64,000 nucleotides of DNA, from positions 28,148,001-28,212,000 of the forward strand of contig OX597830.1 of assembly GCA_951406725.2 (NCBI GenBank). Direction: 5' to 3'. How positions within the stretch are numbered: the stretch's first letter is position 1; the number at the start of each line of letters is the position of its first letter. Under the pieces are notes generated by a model, which saw only the letters and a list, made by a program, of their open reading frames with translations, did not search any database and was not told the origin of the DNA. Source of the DNA: Octopus vulgaris (taxonomy: Eukaryota). Shown here one piece after another: positions 3,109-58,955 of the stretch. Made by a program: the position numbers and the translations under genes.

Positions 3109-3987
3109 GGCATATCAACCAAATACAGTGAAGCAGGAAAAGTAGTAAAATGTGACAAATAATGCAGACTTGGTGGAGTTAACACCGAGGATATCAACCG
3201 CATCATAAGCAGTTCTCCGAAAATGTCATCACCGTATTATCTACCGATGAGATGATATTATATTTAGGACACCGCATAACGTGATACGTTGAAATGATAA
3301 AACCGAAGATAAAGAAATAGGAACCTGTAGTATGGTGGAAGCCAATTTATCCAAAAAAAGATAAGTGGTGGAATGTCTCAGTGAAAACCTCAATAAAATG
3401 TAAACACAATAGACCTGATATAATGATTTGGGACAGGGAAGAAAAGCTGTGTACAGTTGTGGAGCTCAACTGCCCAGCAGATGTTTGCATAAAGCTGAGA
3501 AACAGTGAAAAGGATTATACCTATGCTGAACTATTGAGAAATCTGCAGTTACTCTATCCAGATTACAAGTTCAGGTTTATACCTGTAATTATTGGGTTGT
3601 GGGTATATGTAGCACGCTGTCTAAATAACAATCTTGTGAAATTAGACTTCTCAAAACCAGAAAGGAGATGCTGATTCAAAGACTACAGATTCAAGCCATC
3701 ACTGGAACAGTAAAAATCTGTAAAACTTTCCAAATGTTTATCGTCTATGTATATATGAGCATGTCTAGATATGCAAGTATATGCATGAGAAGACATACAT
3801 AAAAACATACAAATCTGCAAGTATGCATGCATACATACATACATACATACATACATACATACATACATACATACATTCAGGCAAAAATACCTGTTGCTGA
3901 TGTTGAAATTCCAATGAAAGAGCCTTGAATTTAGGTTAGAAACCGGATCATTCTCTATGGGCAAGAAATCTTGAAATAAAATAATGA
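3109..3987 (+). mobile_element. 5'-truncated R4/Dong-like non-LTR retrotransposon: decayed CCHC knuckle, restriction-like endonuclease and 3' UTR
   Basis: 3151-3255 translates CDK*CRLGGVNTEDINRIISSSPKMSSPYYLPMR (degenerate CCHC followed by the Y..R motif). ORF 3381-3674 has HNRPDIMIWDREEKLCTVVELNCP...EKDYTYAEL...FIPVIIG, a PD-(D/E)xK RLE. After a frameshift it reads LQIQAITGTVKICKTF. Flanked by (TACA)n. Confidence 0.85.
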
Positions 3988-6254: not shown

Positions 6255-6280
<26 letters not shown>

Positions 6281-6285
<5 letters not shown>

Positions 6286-6348
6286 GTCTAGTGGTTAGGA
6301 TTCCTGGCTTTCACCCAGGCGGCCCGGGTTCGATTCCCGGCATGGGAA
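6281..6348 (+). pseudogene. tRNA-Glu-TTC: tRNA-Glu(TTC) copy lacking its first 4 nt (retroposed, SINE head)
   Basis: TGGTCTAGTGGTTAGGA (D arm/A box), CCTGG-CT-TTC-AC-CCAGG (anticodon 6310-6312), CCGGG-TTCGATT-CCCGG (T arm/B box), 3' acceptor CATGGGA-A. The required 5' TCCC is replaced by (TA)n, so only 3 of 7 acceptor pairs remain. No CCA. Confidence 0.9.
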
Positions 6349-6419
6349 CGTCTTTCTTAAATGGCGGTGCCCCAGCATGGTCACAGCTCATAAGCTGAAA
6401 CTAGAATCAATCAATCAAT

Positions 6420-6423
<4 letters not shown>
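6281..6423 (+). mobile_element. Minimal tRNA-Glu SINE: tRNA + 14-nt trailer + LINE-type tail + (TCAA)n, inserted in (TA)n
   Basis: Tail ggcggtgccccagcatggtcacagctcataagctgaaac is homologous to the family A tail ggcggtgctccagcatggccgcagtcaaatgactgaaac (45742-45780). (TA)n lies on both sides. Confidence 0.75.
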
Positions 6424-6456
<33 letters not shown>

Positions 6457-15768: not shown

Positions 15769-16208
15769 CTCTTTACTCTCTTTTACTCTTTTACTTGTTT
15801 CAGCCATTTGGATGTGGCCATGCTGGAGCACCGCCTTTAGTCGACCAAATCGCCCCTAGGACTTATTCTTTGTACGCCTAGTACTTATTCTATCGGTCAC
15901 TTTTGCCGAACCGCTAAGTTACGGGGACGTAAACATACCAGCAACGGTTGTCAAGCGATGTTGAGGGGACAGACACACAAAAATATGCACACACACACAC
16001 ACACACACAGACACACACACATATATATACATATATACATATATACGACGGGCTTCTTTCAGTTTCCGTATAACAAATCCACTCACATGGCTTTGGTCGG
16101 CCCGAGGCTATAGTAGAAGACACTTGCCCAAGGAGCCGCGCACTGGGTCTGAACCCGGAAACATGTGGTTGGTAAGCAAGCTACATACCACAGAGCCACT
16201 CCTACGCC
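15769..16208 (-). mobile_element. Full-length SINE family A (tRNA head, CORE-like segment, internal microsatellite, (GTAAAAGA)n tail)
   Basis: Close reverse-complement match to 45371-45806. Confidence 0.9.
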
Positions 16209-17649: not shown

Positions 17650-17800
17650 CGTGACAGCCGGTGTTGGTTCACTCACGTGAAAATTAGCGGTTGGGTAAAA
17701 GGATTAGATACAAAAATTCTTGTTCAAGGAAAACTATTTAAAGTGGTGCTACAGCATGGTGCTACAGCATGGCCGTAGTTCATTTACTGAAACAAATAAG
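17650..17800 (+). mobile_element. SINE family A 3' half, degenerate
   Basis: gacagccggtgttggt..ttagcggtt..ggtgctacagcatggccgtagttcatttactgaaacaa. Confidence 0.6.
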
Positions 17801-18289
17801 ATGTATGAAATAGAACAGATGTTTCCTTTTTCAGATATTATTTACACACACAACTCTAACATTCTAAAGAAAGCAACATGTGATAGTAAGATAGCCATTA
17901 TGCTAAGTCCAAAATATTCTTACTATATCATAGGCGTTCTCTCTGATATTAAATAGCAATCTTTGGTAGAAAACATGCAAAGGAGCATACCAACGCCCAC
18001 CCATTCTGTCCGGGTATTGACGAGGGCAAACCGTGAAAAAAAAAAAAAAGAACACGAAAAAATTAATGAATAAGATATTATAAAACTAATCAAAATAATC
18101 GCTTCTCTCTCACACTCTCTCTCAACCTTCCTCTCTCCCTCTCTCTCTCTCGCTTCAAATGTTTTTGCAGCTGCTTTTTATATTATTCAAACAAGAAAAC
18201 AAAACCGACATAATCTTTAATAACACACCAATCGTACATCATTAGGAATAGTAATATTAGTAGTCAGAGATGTGTTATAATAATACTGA

Positions 18290-22082: not shown

Positions 22083-22817
22083 TCAGATGAAGACAGGAGA
22101 GGAGTTAAGCCCATGTGACGCAAAGGAGCGAATTGAGAATATTAATTCTTGTCCACGGCGAAGGCGTGAGTCCGGATGGCCCTTGTGCAAAGACAATCCG
22201 AACACAGACAGGTATTTGTTGTGAATGACTGGTAGAGCGGAAATGGCGGCGACCGGGGTGTCATTGCCGAGTCTGATGCCTAGGAGGTACTCTGCGAATC
22301 GGTCAGCCAAGCGTCGTCCCATTTGGCTGATATACAGAGAAGGGTAGAAAGAGCATGAGACGCAGTAAATGACGTTGCTAGAAGTGCAGGTAAAGGGGTC
22401 GGTGATATGATTGATATGATGATGGGTGCCTTTGAGGATGGTGGAGTTGGAGAGGTAGGGGAAAGTGTGACAGCTTTGATGGGAGCAGGGGAAGAAGCCA
22501 GGTTGGGAGGTGGGGTTACGGAAGAAACTGTAAACAAATAGGTCACGCAGGTTGTGGGCTCGTTTCAAAGAGGGAAGGGGTAGGTTGGGGAAGATGTGAG
22601 AAGTGCAGCGGTCGGGCTGGAATCGCCGGAAGTCTCGGAGAATTGTGCGTTGGAGGGACAGGGTGGAGAGATGGTAGGTAAGAGGAAACTGGAGAAGGGT
22701 AACGACGGGGCAGATGCAGGGAGAGAGAGTTGAGGCACGGTCCAAGGAACGTGCTCTGACGAGGGCTGTGTGGATAGTGGTGAGCGGATATCCACGAATG
22801 ATGACGTGGCAAGCCAT
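22083..22817 (-). pseudogene. PLE RT-thumb/GIY-YIG ORF remnant (244 aa)
   Basis: ORF track translation carries the motifs above; YIG has decayed to YIS. Confidence 0.85.
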
Positions 22818-24611
22818 GAGTTGAGGCTGAGTCTCAAAGTCATGGTTACCACTGCAGAGCCTGCGCAGACGGAGGAATCGAGAGTAGGGGATGGAAGGCT
22901 TGGTGTGGGTAAGGTGAGAGGGTGAGAAGTTAAAGTATGAATTTGAGTGTGTTTGTAGTGGATGGAGGTAGCGAGAGCAGAGTTGTGTATGTTGACCGAA
23001 ATGTCGGGAAATGCGACTGAAATGTTGGAGATAGTGCAGGACTATTCAAGGCAGGGTGGAAGGATTGGACAAAAGAGAGGAAGGAGTCTAGTTGAGTGCA
23101 GGAGAGTGAGGTCGCACCGATACAGTCATCAATATAACAACCGTATAGATACTACTCTAATATTATACCAGACTGAATAGACAAGGACACTGGACTAACT
23201 GCACATGGGTCAAGATTTGATACTGCAGCTGACTGAATATTCCTTGAGTGGATGCTCCTCGTGAGATTTTTTCATTGATATGTTTGTCTTTGGTTATCGC
23301 CAAACCAGTCTTCATAAAGCCGTTCTAGAATCTATGCAATTTCATCCGTGACCATCCCGCATTTTTATTACCATTTTCATTATCAATGTCTTTTCGTTTT
23401 GTTTTATCTTTCAGGTAGAAGATTGGCTTGAGAACGATCAAGCTATATTATGTAGCACGTCGAATGGCCTTATAAAGGCCCAAAGCTGACCGTTGTATAA
23501 GTGGATGTATTGTATGCACGTGTATCAGGTTTGCGAATATCATATGTAAAGGAGAGCATGTGTGTGTCCGTGTGTGTGCATGTGTGTGTTTGTGTGTGTA
23601 CGTTTAACTAGTTCTAGAAAATAGTCACGCCTACAGGTACCTTCTTCGTCATGTATCAGAGGAGACTTAAGCCTTTTAACTAAAGCTTGTTTATACTACT
23701 GGATTCAGGATAATGTTTTGCCTTGTACTAATTACTGCGTTTGTGTCAAATAAACTGTTTTTTTTTTGTTCCCGCATTTTACACTTCTCATATATTTAGA
23801 ATCCAACACTAGAAATTGTTTGACCAACTGGGGATGTAGCTGCTGGAGTAATTTCTTCGAAACGTCAACCAGAGTCCTTCAAATAATTCCTTGTAATCTT
23901 AACAAAGAAAAGAATTATAGAAAAGTGTAACACTTGATATACCGTGACTGTAAAAAAAAAAGAGACAAAATGGTCTCGACAAGAATGATCTTGATTACAT
24001 TTCTACTGTAGCAAGGAGCACAAGAAGCATTTAAAATTATGTAAATCTAAAACAACGGCCATAATAACAAAAAGGATAAATGAGCAAGTGTCAGATATAT
24101 ACACTCATACACACAAACACTATCATGTGCATGCATGTATGAATATATGGACAATTCATGCATGCATACGTAGATATATACAAAATCTATGTATGTTTAC
24201 ATGTATGTGTATGAAGTACAGTTGGTATACTTGGGCACGGCAAACTAAATGGAATATACTTATTTATATCAAGTGCCATTCGTATTTATATCCAGTGCTA
24301 AGATTTAGTAACTAATTATAGAAGATCAGTAACTAGAATTTTCAGTGTTAGCTGGTGTTGTTTCGAAGTGAAAATGTGAATTACTGATTGTAATTTGATC
24401 TTTTATTCTGACCTACAACAAAATACGTTATTAAATATTCTTATCCTGATACGAGTTTATTCCATGATAACTTATGTTGTTAAAGTGTGAATTTGTAATA
24501 TTCACGCCTTCCCTGGGATCAAAGCTATTCTGATAAAATGCTGGACTGGCCCTTTGTATTCCGAGTTCAAATTCCTTTCAGGTCAAATTTGCCTTTCACT
24601 ATTGCGACGAC

Positions 24612-36456: not shown

Positions 36457-36580
36457 TTTTTTTATGATCCCTTTTTTTGATCGATAACTTACACCCCCCT
36501 TTCTTGTCTCTCCCCCAAAAGAAAAGCTCTACTTTGTAATTTGTTCCCCTCTGTGTTCCGCCCCGTGTGACTAATAAACA
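36457..36580 (+). mobile_element. Tx1-like element 3' tail, copy A
   Basis: ccccaaaagaaaagctctac.ttgtaatttgt..ccgtgtgactAATAAAca followed by tatctatc. Confidence 0.75.
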
Positions 36581-36758
36581 TATCTATCTAACAAGCTACC
36601 TATCTACCTACCTACCTACCTACCTACCTACCTACCTACCTACCTACCTACCTACCTACCTACCTACCTACCTACCTACTTACCTATCTACCTATCTATC
36701 TATCTACCTACCTACCTACCTACCTACCTACCTATCTATCTATCTACCTACCTACCTA

Positions 36759-36927
36759 TTTTTTTCTTTTCCTTTTTTTTCTTTTTTTCTTTTTTTTGTT
36801 CTTTTTCCCCTTTTACGATCCCTTTTGATCGAAAACCGACGCCACCTTTTTTTCTCCCCCAAAAGAAAAGCTCTACCTTGTAACTTGTCCCATCTGTGTG
36901 CAGCCCTGTATGGACAATAAAGAAATT
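36759..36927 (+). mobile_element. Tx1-like element 3' tail, copy B
   Basis: Same terminus; AATAAAgaaa followed by a (CTAC)n tract. Confidence 0.8.
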
Positions 36928-37278
36928 TGTCTACCTACCTACCTACCTACCTACCTACCTACCTACCTACCTACCTACCTACCTACTTACTTACCTACAT
37001 ACCTACCTACCTACCTACCTACCTACCTACCTACCTACCTACCTACCTAACTATCTATCTACCTACCTACATACCTACTTACCTACCTACCTATCTACCT
37101 ACCTACCTACATACGTATCTATCTATCTACCTACCTACCTACATACCTCCTTACCTACCTACCTACCTACCTACCTACCTACTTACATACTTACCTACCT
37201 ACCTACCTACCTATCTATCTACCTACCTACTTACCTACCAACCTACCTACTTACCTACCTACCTACTTACCTATCTAC

Positions 37279-37340
<62 letters not shown>

Positions 37341-37341
<1 letters not shown>

Positions 37342-38458
37342 GCAGTCGTGGATCAAAAAGAGGCCGAGGAAGGGCGAATGGCACCGCGAGTGTCGCGTTG
37401 CTCTCAAGCAACTCTGCCGTCCTGGGTCGACCTTAAGTGACTTCAACACAACCAAAGCATTCTATAGGGGTTTAGTGGAGGGGAGGTACGACGACGTGCT
37501 CGGGGCGAACCTGGACGTCGACGAGGAGTACCTGACCCGCCTGTTCAGGACGACTTTCGGGCCAGGGCCCATGGACAACTTCCAGAGATCCCTGGCCTGG
37601 CAGTGCTACCGAGAAGCGCTACCCGTTCGGGATAAGCTCTACAGACACGGCTCGAGAAACACGGGGCCGACCTGCCCGAGATGCGGTCAGAGCGACGAAA
37701 CCGTTCTGCACGCACTCGTTCAGTGTCCAACAATTTCCGACCTGTGGGCTTATGTCGAACAACTGCTGTCACGTGTGGGACGAGTCGGTTTATCAGCTGA
37801 GTCTATCGTCAATATTGTCACGCCTCCTTCCTTCAAACGGGAAGGAAGAGCTATTTTCATCATCCTTGTGGCTATGGCGAAAGAATGTATCTGGTGGACG
37901 CGTCTGAAAGGATTGGAGACAAACACTTTCCTCTCTGGTCAATCTCTCATCAACTTCTTCAAGTACCACTTGAAAAGGAAAGTGAGAGTAGAGAGGCAAG
38001 TTTTGTCTAGCGAATGTTTTAAAAAAAGATGGGTGAATGTAGCAAGAATGGCACGTATGTATGACGAAGCCACCTTGAGCATAGTCCTATGAACCCAGAA
38101 ATCGAAAACAGAGAGTTGCTTATTTGCAAAAAAAAAAGAAATATAAAATGTGACTTCATTGACCGAGGTTACCGTGGTCTTTTCCGTAGGCTTTTCTTTC
38201 CACGGGTAAACCTCACCTGTCCTCCCCTTTACACTTCATATTGACATTTCTGTGATAACGATCCCTATTGATCAATTTTTTTTTCCTCTCCCCACTTTTT
38301 TTAACCCCCCCTTTTTTGTCCTTTTTCTCTCCTTTTACGATCCCTTTTGATCGAAACACCCCTTTCCTTTTTTTTTTTTTTTTTAAACCTTCAAAAGAAA
38401 AGCTCTACCTTGTAATTTGTTCTATCTGTGTGCAGCCCTGTGTGGCTAATAAAGAAAC
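37341..38458 (+). mobile_element. Tx1/L1-clade LINE, 5'-truncated copy C (ORF2 C-terminus with zf-RVT, stop at 38092)
   Basis: Open frame of about 250 aa: FQRSLAWQCYREALPVRDKL..CPRCGQSDETVLHALVQCPTISDLW (C-x2-C-x8-H-x4-C zf-RVT). T-rich 3' UTR, AATAAA at 38448, bounded by (TATC)n. Confidence 0.9.
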
Positions 38459-38463
38459 ATATC

Positions 38464-39226
38464 TATCAGCTGAGTCTATCTTCAATATTGTCACGCCTCC
38501 TTCCTTCAAACGGGAAGGAAGAGCTATTTTCATCATCCCTGTGGCTATGGCGAAAGAATGTATCTGGTGGACGCGTCTGAAAGGATTGGAGACAAACACG
38601 TTCTACTCTGGTCAATCTCTCATCAACTTCTTCAAGTACCACTTGAAAAGGAAAGTGAGAGTAGAGAGGCAAGTTTTGTCTAGCGAATGTTTTAAAAAAA
38701 GATGGGTGAATGTAGCAAGGATGGCACGTATGAATGACGAAGCCACCTTGAACATAATCCTATGAACCCAGAAATTGAAAACAGGGTTACCCACTTGCAA
38801 ACAAATGTGGTAACATATAACAATATTGACCAAGGTTACCGTGGTCTTTTTCGTAGGCTTTTCTTCCCACGGATAAACCTTACTTGCTTTCCCCCTTACA
38901 CCATATATCATAACACTGTGATACACGATCCCTATTGATCGTTCTTTTTTTCCTCTTCCCCTTTTTTCCCCTTTTTTCTTCTTTTTTCATTTCTCTTTCC
39001 TTTTGTTCCTTTTCCTTTTCTTTTTTCTTCTTTTTCTTCTTTTTATTTTATTCAATTTTTTTTTGTTTTTTTGTTTTCGTTCTTTTCTTCCCTTTTACGA
39101 TCCCTCTTGATCGAAAACCTACGCCACCCCCTTTTTTTTCTTTTGTTATTTGTTCTCTTCATCCCCCAAAAGAAAAGCTCTACCTTGTCCCATCTGTGTG
39201 CAGCCCTGTGTGGCCAATAAAGAAAC
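38464..39226 (+). mobile_element. Tx1-like copy D
   Basis: Near-identical to copy C from 37791 onward. The 5' junction lies at an internal TATC; ends AATAAAgaaac then (TATC)n. Confidence 0.9.
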
Positions 39227-39284
<58 letters not shown>

Positions 39285-39285
<1 letters not shown>

Positions 39286-40237
39286 CTGCTGTCACGTGTG
39301 GGACGTGTCGGTTTATTAGCTGAGTCTATCGTCAATATTGTCACGCCTCCTTCCTTCAAACGGGAAGGAAGAGCTATTTTCATCATCCTTGTGGCTATGG
39401 CGAAAGAATGTATCTGGTGGACGCATCTGAAAGGATTGGAGACAAACACATTCCTCTCTAGTCAATCTCTCATCAACTTCTTCAAGTACCACTTGAAAAG
39501 GAAAGTGAGAGTAGAGAGGCAAGTTTTGTCTAGCGAATGTTTTAAAAAAAGATGGGTGAATGTAGCAAGGATGGCACGTATGAACGACGAAGCCACCTTG
39601 AGCATAATCCTATGAACCCAGAAATTGAAAACAGAGGGTTACCCACTTGCAAACAAATGTGGTAACATATAACAATATTGACCAAGGTTACCGTGGTCTT
39701 TTTCGTAGGCTTTTCTTCCCACGGATAAACCTTACTTGCTTTCCCCTTTACACCATATATCATAACACTGTGATACACGATCCCTATTGATCGTTCTTTT
39801 TTTCCTCTTCCCCTTTTTTTCCTCTTTTTTCTTCTTTTTTCATTTCTCTTTTCTCTTGTTCCTTTTCCTTTTCTTTTTTTCTTTTTATTCTTTTTATTTT
39901 TTTATTTTATTATTTTTTTTTGTTCTTTTTTTCCCTTTTACGATCCCTCTGGATCGAAAACCTACGCCACCCCTTTTTTTCCTCTTTTTTCTTCTTTTTT
40001 CATTTCTCTTTTCTTTTGTTCCTTTTCCTTTTCTTTTTTTTCTTTTTATTCTTTTTATTTTTTATTTTATTTATTTATTTTTTTGTTCTTTTCTTCCCTT
40101 TTACGATCCCTCTGGATCGAAAACCTACGCCACCCCTTTTTTTCTTTTGTTTTTTGTTTTTTTCATCCCCCAAAAGACAAGCTCTACCTTGTAACTTGTC
40201 CCATCTGTATGCAGCCCTGTGTGGCCAATAAAGAAAC
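39285..40237 (+). mobile_element. Tx1-like copy E with internal 3' UTR duplication
   Basis: Near-identical to C and D; the ttttacgatccctctggatcgaaaacctacgccacccc unit occurs twice. Flanked by (TATC)n. Confidence 0.9.
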
Positions 40238-40608
40238 TTATCTATCTATCTATCTATCAATCTATCTATCTATCTATTTATCTATTTATCTAGGAAATTA
40301 GTATTATACCTATAGAGATGTGTTTGATTCGTAGCTTACACTGGTCATCTCTGAGTAAATGCTGAATAACCAATCGGATAAAAATGATAAAGCGAACGTT
40401 TGCTCTGGTTTATCATACAGTATGTGTAATACTTGCGACTGTGTTCTAAAGTATCTCGTCTATGAGTGGCGTGTGGTGGGCCCCCTAAGACAGACACACA
40501 CATGCAGTCGCTCTCAGCCCACCCATACCACACATACATGCACCACATACACTTAAGCATGCACATGCACATGTACACACTTACGCAGATACCGATGCAC
40601 AAGCACGT

Positions 40609-40671
<63 letters not shown>

Positions 40672-40717
40672 GATAGATACACATCAGGCAGAGAGACAGA
40701 CAAACAGGTAGAGAGTT

Positions 40718-40774
<57 letters not shown>

Positions 40775-40789
40775 TAGATTGATAGATAT

Positions 40790-41505
40790 GTTTCTTTATT
40801 GGCCACACAGGGCTGGAACACAGATGGGTAGGACAAAATACAAAGTAGAGCTTTTCTTTTGGGGGAAAAGGAGAGAAGAAACAAGAAAAAAATGTGGGTC
40901 GAATTGCGATCAAAAGGGATCATGAGAAAAGAAAACGAAAAGGGTTGGGCTGATCAATAGGGATCGTGTATCACAGAAATGTCAATGTAAAAAGGGAAAA
41001 CAGATTAGGTTTATCCGTAGAAAAAAAAAGCTTACGGAAAAGACCACGGGGACCTTGGACAATAGTGTCATGCAAAAAAAAAACAAAAAAACAAGTGACT
41101 CTCTTTTTTCCCTTCTCTTTGTTTTGGTTCATAGGATTATGCTCAAGGTGGCTTCGTGAATCACTCGTGCCATCCTTGCTACATTCACCCATCTTTTTTT
41201 TAAACAGTCACTAAATAAAACTTCCCTCTCTACTCTCACCTTCCTCCTCGAGTGATGCTTGAAGAAGTTGATGAGAGATAGACCAGAGAGGAAAGAGTTT
41301 GTCTCTAGACCTTTCAGACGCGTCCACCATACACATTATTTTGCCATAACCACAAGTACGATGAAAATGGCTCTTCCTTCTAGTTTCAAGGAAGGAGTCA
41401 CAACAATATTCACGATAGACACGCGAGTGCAGTCGTTCGATATAGGACCACAGGTCGGAATTGGTTGGACACTGTATGAGTGTGTGCGGGAGGGTTTCTA
41501 CGCTA
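40790..41505 (-). mobile_element. Tx1-like copy F (older, inverted)
   Basis: Reverse-complement homology (ETLPHTLIQCPTNSDLWSYIE); its 3' end abuts gatagata, which is (TATC) on its own strand. Confidence 0.85.
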
Positions 41506-49961: not shown

Positions 49962-51584
49962 ATAAATTTAAGACCGATGATAAAAGTTCTATTTTTTACA
50001 AAATATTTTGTTACTAACTCCATACAAATTATTTTCATCTTTTGCACCTTATGCAGAATTTATTTCTCTTTCGAATGATGCAGACAATAACTATTTTTAT
50101 ATAACTTGAAGAATTCTAATGCTAAATTAATATAAACCTTTCAAATTTACCGGCAAAATTATTTTCAGACAGAATCATTATAATTTTATTGAAAGCTTAA
50201 GATGGTACAAAAATGGGCAACAAGAACTAAATACATATTAGTACTTTGTGCCGTAGCCTTTATTCTTAATAACGGCTGAACAAAGCCTGGTTATTGAATA
50301 CGCTACGTGATTACAAAATTCTATGGGAATGCTTTGCCTTATTTCATTGATATAATCGTAAAATTATTTTAGATTAGATGTTTTTTTAGTATGGACGTCT
50401 TTGGAAATATAATTCCACAAGTTCTCGATCGGATTCAGGTCTGGGTTCTGGGGAGGCCATTCGATTACGTCAATATTATGGTGATCAAAAGATTCCAGAA
50501 CAATTTTGGCGTTGTGCACAGGACTATTGTCGTGCTGATAAATAGCTCGCGGAGGCATTTGGTAAGTTAAATATGGCACAGCATTAGCCTTTAGTAGATT
50601 CATATAACTAATACTATTTAGCTTTCCATCAACTTTAACTAGAGGACCAACACCAAAGCTACTAAATGCCGCCCACACCATCACATCCCATCCCCGCATG
50701 CACCCTTTTTTCACGTATTTCTGATAGAATTCCTCGGTTGGGCGACGTCTGACGTATGTTTTACCACCTGATACAAACATACAGATGCGTGACTCGTCAC
50801 TCCAAAGGACCCTGCAGCAATCTTCGGCAGTCCATTGAGCATGACTTTTTGCGAAATTAAGGCGTTTGAGTGGATTTCTTTCGGATATTATTGGCTTTTT
50901 CCTAGCGATTCGTTCATGTAATCCAAATTCTCTCAACCGGTTGCGGACGGTTTGTGGTCTAAAAATAACACCATTCTCGTTAGACAATTGTTTACAAATG
51001 TCAACAGCTGTCAGTTTTCGGTTGCCTTCCGAAAGTCGGTGGATTCGACGGTTCAACTGAGCCGTGGTTTTTCTTGAAGCGCCAGTCTTTTGCCGATCTT
51101 TATATTGACCAGTCTCCGAGTATAATTTCCACGCTTGCACACAAACCGTTTTACTGCACTTTAGTTGCTTGTTGATGTTCGAAAAGGAAACTTTTTGCTG
51201 GTGGAATAATGCGATTTTTGTTCTCGTGACTGGACTGAATCTACGATGTTTTCCCATTATTAATCAATTGTATAATAATTTTAAATTATAACACTATATA
51301 GTGCAGTTAGGCTAGTTGTGGGACCACCTATTTTGGCAAAAACAATTTGCATACATATTACATGGTCTTAAACTAATTTTGCCGGTAAATTTAACACGTT
51401 TATATTAATTTAGCATTAGAATTCTTCAAGTTGTATAAAAATAGTTATTGTCTGCATCATTTGAAAGAGAAATAAATACTGCATAAGATGTAAAACATAG
51501 AAATAATTTGTATGGTGTTAGTAACAAAATATTTTGTAAAAAATAGAACTTTTATCATCGGTCTTAAATTTATTTTCGGCAGTG
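49962..51584 (-). mobile_element. Tc1-family DNA transposon with ~210-220-bp IR/DR terminal inverted repeats
   Basis: 49962-50170 is the reverse complement of 51365-51573. The right end is ..ggcagtg|TA. The left end lacks the terminal 11 bp (cactgccgaaa). Confidence 0.95.
50238..51257 (-). pseudogene. Tc1 DD34E transposase, 339 codons with one in-frame TAA at 50364-50366
   Basis: HTH N-terminus, WSDES, HDNSPVH..WPPQNPDLNPIENLW with 34 residues between D and E. The frame continues past the stop as FYDYINEIRQSIPIEFCNHVAYSITRLCSAVIKNKGYGTKY*. Confidence 0.93.
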
Positions 51585-55364: not shown

Positions 55365-56665
55365 AAGAGAGGCAGTTAGATAAATAAAGATAAATATCCC
55401 CTAACATAAGTAGGCAAATATGCATGCCTATGCATGCACTCGCGCGCCCACACACGAAAACACAAAGGCAATCAGACACATGTATATATATGTGTATATA
55501 TATATGTGTGTGTGTGTGTATACATTTGTGCGTGTGTACGTGTGGATGAATACCTGTTAGTGTAAGCATTTTTCTGTGCTTCAGCGTGTAATGGAGTTCT
55601 GACAATTCCGATAGAGCCATACATAAAACATGCATCTACGTTCGCCCCCCCATTGTTGCTGAATAGATGCATCAGAGATGAATGCAAGAGTTGGTTCTTC
55701 TTCTTCTTCTTCTTCTTCTTCTTCTTCTTCTTCTTCTTCTTCTTCTTCTTCTTCTTCTTCTTCTTCTTTCTTCTCCTGTCTTTTTCCACTGTTCTTACCA
55801 TAAGCCAATTGGATATTGCTAAACGTGTCTAGAATAGCATCCGCTAATTTCAGTGTTTACTGTTGTAATAAATGCTTTAACGAATATCAACGATGCTTGA
55901 TAAATATTTTATTTTTATCTTTAGAATTAAAACGATGAAAAGCCAACTGACAATATTGCTTTCATCTCAAACGATTAAGCATTTAATTTATGAACAGATT
56001 ATTTTTAGGCTCCAACAATATAGTATTTTCGCTAATTCCAGTAAAATATGTCATTACATTGTATTTATAATTTTTACTGCTTATAGACTTTTATTTCGCT
56101 TTCTATTTCGTTTTACTGTTAATATTTTACTGTTTCTTTATTTTACTTAATTTCATACAGCACCGAGGTCAGTTCAAATCTAGGAAAGTTCTCTCAAAAC
56201 TAGTCTACCTATCACCATATTGCATTAGTCAGACAGCAATCAGGAGTTTAATCCTGTATAGGTCCTTTTGTTTTGCAAGTCGCTAGCTTGAAATTTAAGG
56301 GTTATTCGGCTGCTATTTCTATTTGGTTGAGTTCTTTATTTGACTGAAGCTCCCATGGTTTTTAGTAGCGTTGTTGCTGCTTCTACTTTTTTCTTCTTTT
56401 TCCAATCAGGACTCACGCCTTTAGCCACAAAGAATAATCTGTAATTCGAGCCTGCTCTAAGCGTCTAAGAGTGCGTGTGGCAACTTGAAGATCTACCCAC
56501 CACACGCGATAGACTGGTGGTTGCACGGGTGCGAAAGCTACGTTGTTATCCTCATTCCGTAAACGGTGGCTTTTATCGGGTGGAGAGCTGAACCATCCTG
56601 GGGCACCGAAGATTCGCAATCTAGACTAAGGTCTGAAGGTTTACCACACTATATTGGTAAACCTT

Positions 56666-58060: not shown

Positions 58061-58485
58061 TGTCCATATCTTCTAGAATATAGATTTACGGATTTATATC
58101 GGTTATTACGTCTCAAATATTCATGGTTAGTGCAATATTGCATATCCTTTCCTTTATATGCCAAATTCAATGTTAGATAGCCGTTAAAAATAAACTGAGA
58201 ATAGAAACATTTGGATGATGGTGGCAGTCAATATTCCGATAGATTTATGGGAGTGATTTTCCATTTGTTTCAACGCAACTCGTGGCATATGTCTCACTGC
58301 TTTTGCGATGATGCCAGAGGGCTGGAAATCAGAATACATAAAGTCAGAGAAGCACTGTGAGCATCGAGTTGGACATTCTAAGAATTGTACAATCCAAAGC
58401 CCTGAGCAGTTACATATCTATTGACTCCGCAAGGGTGAAGTGTCAAAGTGGCCTCTGCTGCATGTAAACTAAGAGATCAGAGAGT

Positions 58486-58626
58486 CAGAACAAACGCGCA
58501 CTGAACATCTGCCGCTCATGCGCCTTCTTCACCAGGTACGTAGATGACGTTCTCATACTCACATCCTCCCGTGAAGAGGCTGACAGAATATTCACGACGT
58601 TCAATAACATGGACATGAACATAAAG
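58486..58626 (+). mobile_element. Penelope-like reverse transcriptase fragment
   Basis: Frame +1 reads FFTRYVDDVLILTSSREEADRIFTTFNNMDMNIK, with YVDD at 58537-58548. The F..FN..D.NIK pattern is typical of PLE RT. Confidence 0.75.
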
Positions 58627-58727
58627 CGACTCCATCTAAGAATATCTGAAGAAGGAATTTTATTCCGAAATATTATCAGACTATGGATAACTAAATTATG
58701 TTGCATTGTTGTACCATTCAAAGCTTT

Positions 58728-58782
<55 letters not shown>

Positions 58783-58802
58783 GGTGTGTGTAATGTATGT
58801 AT

Positions 58803-58955
58803 AAATACAAATTGGGACAAGAATGCAAAACATACAGATAGACGATACAAAAATCACTGACGGGTCATTCGAAGCCTTTAATCTTCGGTCAAGAACCGGA
58901 ACATCCTATCAATTTTGGCTGATTAATCTTGAGATTGCTCCAATCTGGCCAGCCC
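58803..58955 (-). mobile_element. Probable PLE-type terminal fragment of another family
   Basis: TA-flanked ~150-bp segment laid out like the other PLE termini; no canonical hammerhead. Confidence 0.35.

Follow-up and report, generated by a model that had tools for sequence, protein, structure and literature searches.

The window, by which we mean the whole 64-kb stretch of octopus DNA that was analysed, has a GC content of 34.7% and is dense in microsatellites. At positions 6281-6422 it holds a unit of 142 bp in which a tRNA-Glu(TTC) head is joined through a short linker to a retroposon tail. The parts of the unit and its flanks, all on the forward strand, are as follows.

6255..6284 (+): (AT)14GT run, target of the insertion; as the left half of a candidate duplication it is identical over 30 nt with 6426-6455
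6281..6348 (+): tRNA-Glu(TTC) head, tRNA positions 5-73, 5'-truncated and without CCA (ARAGORN, Rfam, stem pairing)
6349..6362 (+): 14-nt linker with TCTTTCTT at 6351-6358, likely a pre-tRNA trailer with a leaky terminator (sequence)
6363..6406 (+): tail homologous to the 3' end of family A, the commonest SINE-like repeat of the window (blastn, HMM, ungapped alignment)
6363-6382 and 6384-6397 (+): predicted hairpins in the tail, the second being CAGCT-cata-AGCTG (folding, alignment)
6407..6422 (+): (TCAA)4 terminal repeat
6423..6455 (+): (TA)15TGT run that forms the right half of the candidate duplication and leads into a (TCTA)n microsatellite

The tRNA-Glu(TTC) at 6278-6347 is the single ARAGORN call in the 64 kb, and Rfam likewise gives one tRNA in the window, the same tRNA-Glu(TTC). 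The RF00005 match scores 49.2 bits (cut-off 29) over the 63 nt of 6281-6343, covering model positions 5-66 of 71, in line with the SINEBase description of a tRNA-derived part by at least 60% identity to a tRNA over at least 60 nt. As the first-pass annotation had stated, the anticodon and T arms are perfect, with 5/5 pairs in each stem; the D stem is also fully paired (4/4), and the A box (6284-6294) and B box (6327-6337) are intact. That annotation also had the first 4 nt of the tRNA missing. Positions 1-4 are indeed absent, since CATGGGA (6341-6347) calls for a 5' TCCCATG and 6277-6280 reads ATAT, part of the TA repeat; the exact size of the loss is not 4 nt but anything from 4 to 8 nt, because ATGT (6281-6284) may itself belong to a target duplication. 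A complete 7-bp acceptor stem is absent, and what is left of it amounts to three Watson-Crick pairs (ATG/CAT), two chance G-T pairs and two mismatches. With TA repeat in the first four positions, this copy cannot yield a normal tRNA. No CCA follows the discriminator at 6348, again in agreement with the first description, and no T4 run occurs before 6894, about 545 nt downstream of the head.

Behind the tRNA-Glu, the candidate pre-tRNA trailer sequence is CGTCTTTCTT. Its terminator-like T-run, TCTTTCTT, begins 3 nt past the discriminator, and both TCT3 and T3CT2 motifs are present in the linker. In human Pol III assays, TCT3 gives about 50% termination and motifs of the TCT3/T3CT2 type (T3VT2) rank as sub-optimal, according to the available part of PMC3141230; these human data may not carry over to a mollusc. 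Weak-terminator-like motifs so close to the discriminator make the linker a plausible pre-tRNA trailer. The description of the linker as a genomic-style trailer with an interrupted T-run was borne out for the T-run, which does resemble a weak terminator, but not for 'genomic', since 5/9 family A copies look similar at this place, with a run of pyrimidines and then A or AA right before the tail (judged by eye). To go by its sequence, the 3' part of the linker may instead be tail sequence or junction microhomology, and if the pyrimidine run is tail-derived, the trailer argument would fall.

The proposed homology of the tail to family A was confirmed. By blastn the tail is 75-84% identical to six family A tail ends (a seventh match, of 25 nt at 56608, was left out of family A), and an HMM built from eight family A tails, with the query excluded, recovers 6362-6402 at E 1.2e-5. 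The alignment is gapless, and 12/44 columns differ from the family A majority, a divergence of 27%. The terminal repeats are different: family A has TAAAAGA(G)-type ends, whereas this tail runs, as had been noted, into TCAA units, and its (TCAA)4 is the sole TCAA array behind a tail, out of two TCAA arrays in the window.

Despite the 12 differences, all 12 predicted pairs are kept in the tail. Two of them have undergone double compensatory changes (T-A to C-G and C-G to T-A), and a third has gone from G-C to G-T. The ten family A copies keep 7-12 of the pairs, all 12 only in the copy without differences; at 15846 lies an intermediate, a copy in which just the first of the two double changes (T-A to C-G) is present. 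When random decay was simulated in 400,000 trials, 0.09-0.23% matched the 12/12 pairs plus two double changes of the tail, a figure that is post hoc because the pairing model was drawn from the same sequences. Across 11 aligned tails, paired cells reach 82.6% versus 79.0% in shuffled alignments (1/500 as high), doubly changed pairs do not exceed the shuffles (156/500 as high), and the covariation score is not significant (55/500 shuffles). Folding gave z values of -2.0 for 6351-6412 and -1.0 for 6365-6410, and the whole element folds no better than shuffles (z -1.15). The covarying hairpin of the first-pass annotation therefore stands in part: CAGCT-cata-AGCTG is kept with compensatory changes, and the upstream hairpin at 6363-6382, which lay beyond the one described there, is kept too; the covariation is not significant over the 11 tails, and the family A counterpart CAGTCA-aa-TGACTG, with its 2-nt loop, had to be rejected, since the gapless alignment gives CAGTC-aaat-GACTG (5-bp stem, 4-nt loop). 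Prediction and pair counts point to a 3' stem-loop followed by a short terminal repeat. Because all pairs were held through 12 differences, two of the changes being double and compensatory, the tail likely derives, as far as its sequence can tell, from a sister lineage, one that has a (TCAA)n end of its own, and not from a decayed family A copy.

The tail had been called LINE-type. It is a retroposon tail homologous to family A, but no LINE with this tail was found, and the HMM detects no LINE-borne copy of it in the window. That it is a LINE tail, and that its hairpin serves as a recognition signal for reverse transcriptase, we infer by analogy with CR1/L2 tails, whose 3' hairpin is described as recognised by the reverse transcriptase in the available parts of PMC5729268 and PMC4824008; both terms lean on this precedent because the (TCAA)n sister lineage was not found.

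As for the insertion site, the unit sits inside (TA)n as first described, with (AT)14GT before it and (TA)15TGT after it, and the last 4 nt of the left run (ATGT) double as tRNA positions 5-8. The candidate target-site duplication is up to 30 nt long, wholly microsatellite, and its length cannot be fixed within the repeat; it is weak, since TGT follows 51 of the 200 (TA)6+ arrays in the window (25.5%). Excising the unit restores a continuous (TA)n-TGTC-(TCTA)n microsatellite. Nine family A tails were tested for the same surroundings (14293, 15794, 17045, 17793, 26872, 33300, 45783, 57740 and 62762; excluded were 17737, a partial duplicate, and 43127, whose match is weak at E 0.067), and 7/9 have (TA)3+ within 45 nt downstream, versus 21.9% of random sites (p 6e-4). 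This suggests, uncorrected for later repeat growth at A/T-rich tails, that the partner LINE favours TA microsatellites. Given that TA runs flank both the tRNA-tail unit and 7/9 family A tails, the two were likely placed by the same kind of machinery. At 17737-17802 (+), a family A tail has the core of its first hairpin duplicated in tandem (13 nt).

Other retroelements are present in the window. Several Tx1/L1-type LINE 3' ends (zf-RVT, E 2.5e-8) lie at 36,500-41,500; they are 72-95% alike, arranged in tandem with one inverted, and separated by (CTAC)n/(TATC)n arrays. This element may target microsatellites, inserting repeatedly. A Tx1/L1-type open reading frame in the window has 14 relatives, two of which are named: one in Argonauta hians, with 60% identity at 80% coverage, and one in Octopus bimaculoides, 97% identical over 15%. 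They make an octopod host likely. The HMM of the tail has no match in the Tx1-like repeats of the window. A frame of 117 aa at 3321-3674 (+) has an RPD-type motif but no Pfam match at E 0.1, and a (CATA)n end comes after it; we take the motif to be typical of R4/Dong restriction-like endonucleases. As a partner of the tail this remnant was rejected, its 3' end being different.

Whether the unit belongs among the SINEs depends largely on copy number. SINEBase, in the available part of PMC3531059, describes SINEs as shorter than 1 kb and present in at least 100 interspersed copies, sets them apart from RNA pseudogenes by additional sequence or by diagnostic changes that the copies have in common, and counts A and B boxes only as an indication of Pol III transcription. 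The 142-bp unit lies well below 1 kb, and its intact boxes are, on sequence grounds, such an indication of a Pol III promoter. An extra tail, which may distinguish it from an RNA pseudogene, is present in the one copy of the 64 kb. It consists of head, 14-nt linker and tail only and, as the first-pass annotation had stated, has no central domain. The head and body of family A are absent upstream of the tail: the region from 6281 falls outside the blastn matches of a full family A copy, and the comparison of the two heads is not significant (best E 0.24). Within the 64 kb, 16-mers from the tail occur again elsewhere, but those from the head and the junction do not. The unit is built like a minimal SINE, and is likely either a young retroposed tRNA-tail chimera or a minimal-SINE copy.

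Since a copy was met in a single window, a multi-copy family is a priori likelier than a one-off. The family reading is weakened by the head, none of whose stems is damaged, and by the internal leaky terminator, which would cut full-length RNA. We regard a real family of 100 or more copies in the genome as quite possible, at somewhat less than even odds, and give the same weight to a unit that is unique; an intermediate number of 2-99 copies seems unlikely. In favour of a family, cephalopods are rich in tRNA-like repeats, with about 17,000 tRNA-derived loci in the giant squid according to the available part of PMC6962438. The available part of PMC13282606 puts SINEs at 11.6% of the O. vulgaris genome and counts 900 recently active families, 893 of them unclassified. 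With octopus genomes known as SINE-rich, one more octopus SINE family would be unsurprising.

Taken together, the unit at 6281-6422 is probably a fusion made by reverse transcription, of the sort from which SINEs arise. While the anatomy of the unit can be read from the DNA, we infer from it every step by which the tRNA and the tail were joined. The explanation that we prefer, at a probability of roughly 0.55, is a single LINE-reverse-transcriptase insertion in which the template was switched from a LINE/SINE 3' end to an unprocessed pre-tRNA. The reverse transcriptase of a LINE related to the mover of family A would start from the (TCAA)n tail, priming at a target within TA repeat, and, after about 60 nt, would jump to the 3' end of a pre-tRNA-Glu, that is, to its U-rich leaky terminator. 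Such a jump would explain why a trailer is present, why CCA is missing and why the T-run ends at the junction. Synthesis of the cDNA would then stop 4-8 nt short of the 5' end of the tRNA, at the match of ATGT to the target. The A and B boxes survive in the resulting unit, which could thus serve as a template for Pol III and behave as a proto-SINE, and the copy at 6281-6422 would be the founding chimera or its daughter. There are precedents: for PittSINE, the available part of PMC5729268 proposes that the template was switched, with a tRNA taking over from the tail of a SINE, and 21 tRNA/LINE-1 chimeric loci are on record, by the available part of 10.1101/2025.02.02.635956. Against the template switch we count, from the anatomy, the weak target duplication and the possibly tail-derived pyrimidine run, together with the fact that the precedents among chimeras are mostly antisense half-tRNAs. 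The 64-kb window showed neither a second copy nor a source tRNA gene nor a partner LINE.

The read-through origin put forward in the first-pass annotation fits nearly as well as the template switch, with one event more. A 5'-truncated LINE would have landed behind the weak terminator of a tRNA-Glu gene elsewhere, and Pol III read-through would have produced a tRNA-tail RNA that was retroposed here. What stood of that proposal is the weak-terminator-like T-run after the tRNA: the linker motifs TCT3 and T3CT2 are sub-optimal terminators in the available part of PMC3141230, which makes read-through feasible, and the trailer, the absence of CCA and the TA-flanked insertion are accounted for equally well. 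The scheme takes two events, however, and the LINE must have landed only a few bases from the terminator; its source locus was not seen in the window, and the terminator data behind it are human and may not transfer to a mollusc. We therefore prefer the template switch and consider read-through a less probable though serious alternative.

A native tRNA gene in place, with a short 5'-truncated LINE/SINE behind it and its first bases lost by slippage, deletion or mis-assembly, is improbable. The head does look like a working tRNA, and a terminator-like run begins 3 nt past its discriminator; the break falls in an uninterrupted TA run, a kind of sequence on which polymerases slip and assemblies go wrong by slippage. 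Yet the TGT-ending TA runs on both sides and the continuous empty-site microsatellite fit one insertion, and a native gene requires two coincidences, one per end. That the tail is a decayed, 5'-truncated family A copy which came by chance to lie beside a tRNA pseudogene is very improbable: its identity to family A and the presence of about ten family A tails in the window would allow it, but pair retention under simulated random decay speaks against such a source, as do the other terminal repeat and a near-perfect head adjoining so diverged a tail.

Within the window the closest relative of the unit is family A, with a homologous two-hairpin tail and the same TA-repeat site bias; family A differs in its length of about 440 bp, its long body and a head without significant match to this tRNA. 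We take family A to be a described octopus SINE family. Ohshima and Okada, cited in PMC4824008 and PMC3531059, reportedly described the octopus SINEs OK, OR1 and OR2 in 1994. Among other systems, the passerine TguSINE1/PittSINE, mobilised by CR1, resembles the unit in having a tRNA head that has stayed close to its gene, a hairpin tail and a short terminal repeat, and also in a head proposed to stem from a template switch to a tRNA; its heads are of tRNA-Ile/tRNA-Asp, it is multi-copy and its partner is CR1-X1_Pass, whereas the octopus unit has tRNA-Glu and one copy in the window (PMC5729268, available part). The tRNA/LINE-1 chimeras are alike in joining a tRNA to a LINE 3' part in a single event and in their low copy number (21 loci); they are mostly half tRNAs in antisense, made by LINE-1 machinery (10.1101/2025.02.02.635956, available part), unlike the octopus unit with its near full-length sense tRNA, trailer and non-poly(A) tail. 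A tRNA-Glu head with a LINE-derived 3' part is shared by ManaSINE1 (PMC4844689), SINE2-1_EC (PMC5786205) and Vhc_1 (PMC4758252), the last being from a bivalve, hence molluscan, with a CR1-like tail; the three, compared by description only and from the available parts of these sources, differ in a bipartite RTE tail or a V-domain body. Head-plus-tail SINEs, tRNA-Glu heads and tRNA/LINE-1 chimeras are already in print, and the unit at most adds a member.

The joining of a tRNA to a LINE tail has mostly been inferred from old families, and for PittSINE the authors regard the alternatives as not testable without a genome, in the available part of PMC5729268. A young case that keeps its pre-tRNA trailer would separate template switch from read-through. 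If the junction is unique, the unit is an ordinary retroposed chimera. The most far-reaching possibility is a SINE just coming into being: a minimal family, confined to one species and not yet fixed in it, made of an unmutated tRNA-Glu and a 44-nt LINE tail, with founder, source gene and a TA-repeat-seeking, TCAA-ending partner LINE all extant in one octopus genome. We think this doubtful; if true, the origin of the fusion could be read directly from DNA.

Searches outside the window covered sequencing runs, sequence collections, proteins and literature. A word search with 6281-6423 returned 24 runs from 16 studies, the share of 10 words being 0.6 in 2 runs, 0.5 in 19 and 0.4 in 3. As 38/113 possible words lie in the tRNA alone, a share of about 0.5 agrees with matches to its conserved sequence. 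The whole element was in none of the 24 runs and the locus itself was absent from all, so that this search had no positive control and counts neither for nor against a family. The exact junction pattern gave 0 matches in metagenome contigs, a collection likewise without positive control. A degenerate tail pattern gave 0 in metagenome, viral and prokaryote collections; these are uninformative, because family A, covered by the same pattern, is also absent from them. With the one open 30-codon frame over junction and tail, phmmer found no match at E 0.001 among 1.84 billion proteins; a flawless match of 22 residues would have reached E 6e-8, but repeats that code for nothing may well be missing from a protein collection. 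Four tail motifs had no match in literature full texts, nor did tail motifs in the searched parts of the supplements of PMC4824008, PMC8967140 and PMC9115989. An octopus tRNA-Glu minimal SINE is not described in the literature searched, and Repbase or the O. vulgaris repeat library may list it.

The window also contains further traces of mobile elements. A remnant at 58468-58860 (+) gives a weak RVT_1 match (E 0.009), and another, at 22083-23045 (-), has no Pfam match; both look Penelope-like to us. Finally, an open frame of 299 aa at 50364-51263 (-) encodes a Tc1/mariner transposase, with matches to HTH_Tnp_Tc3_2 (E 3e-19) and DDE_3 (E 1e-11).
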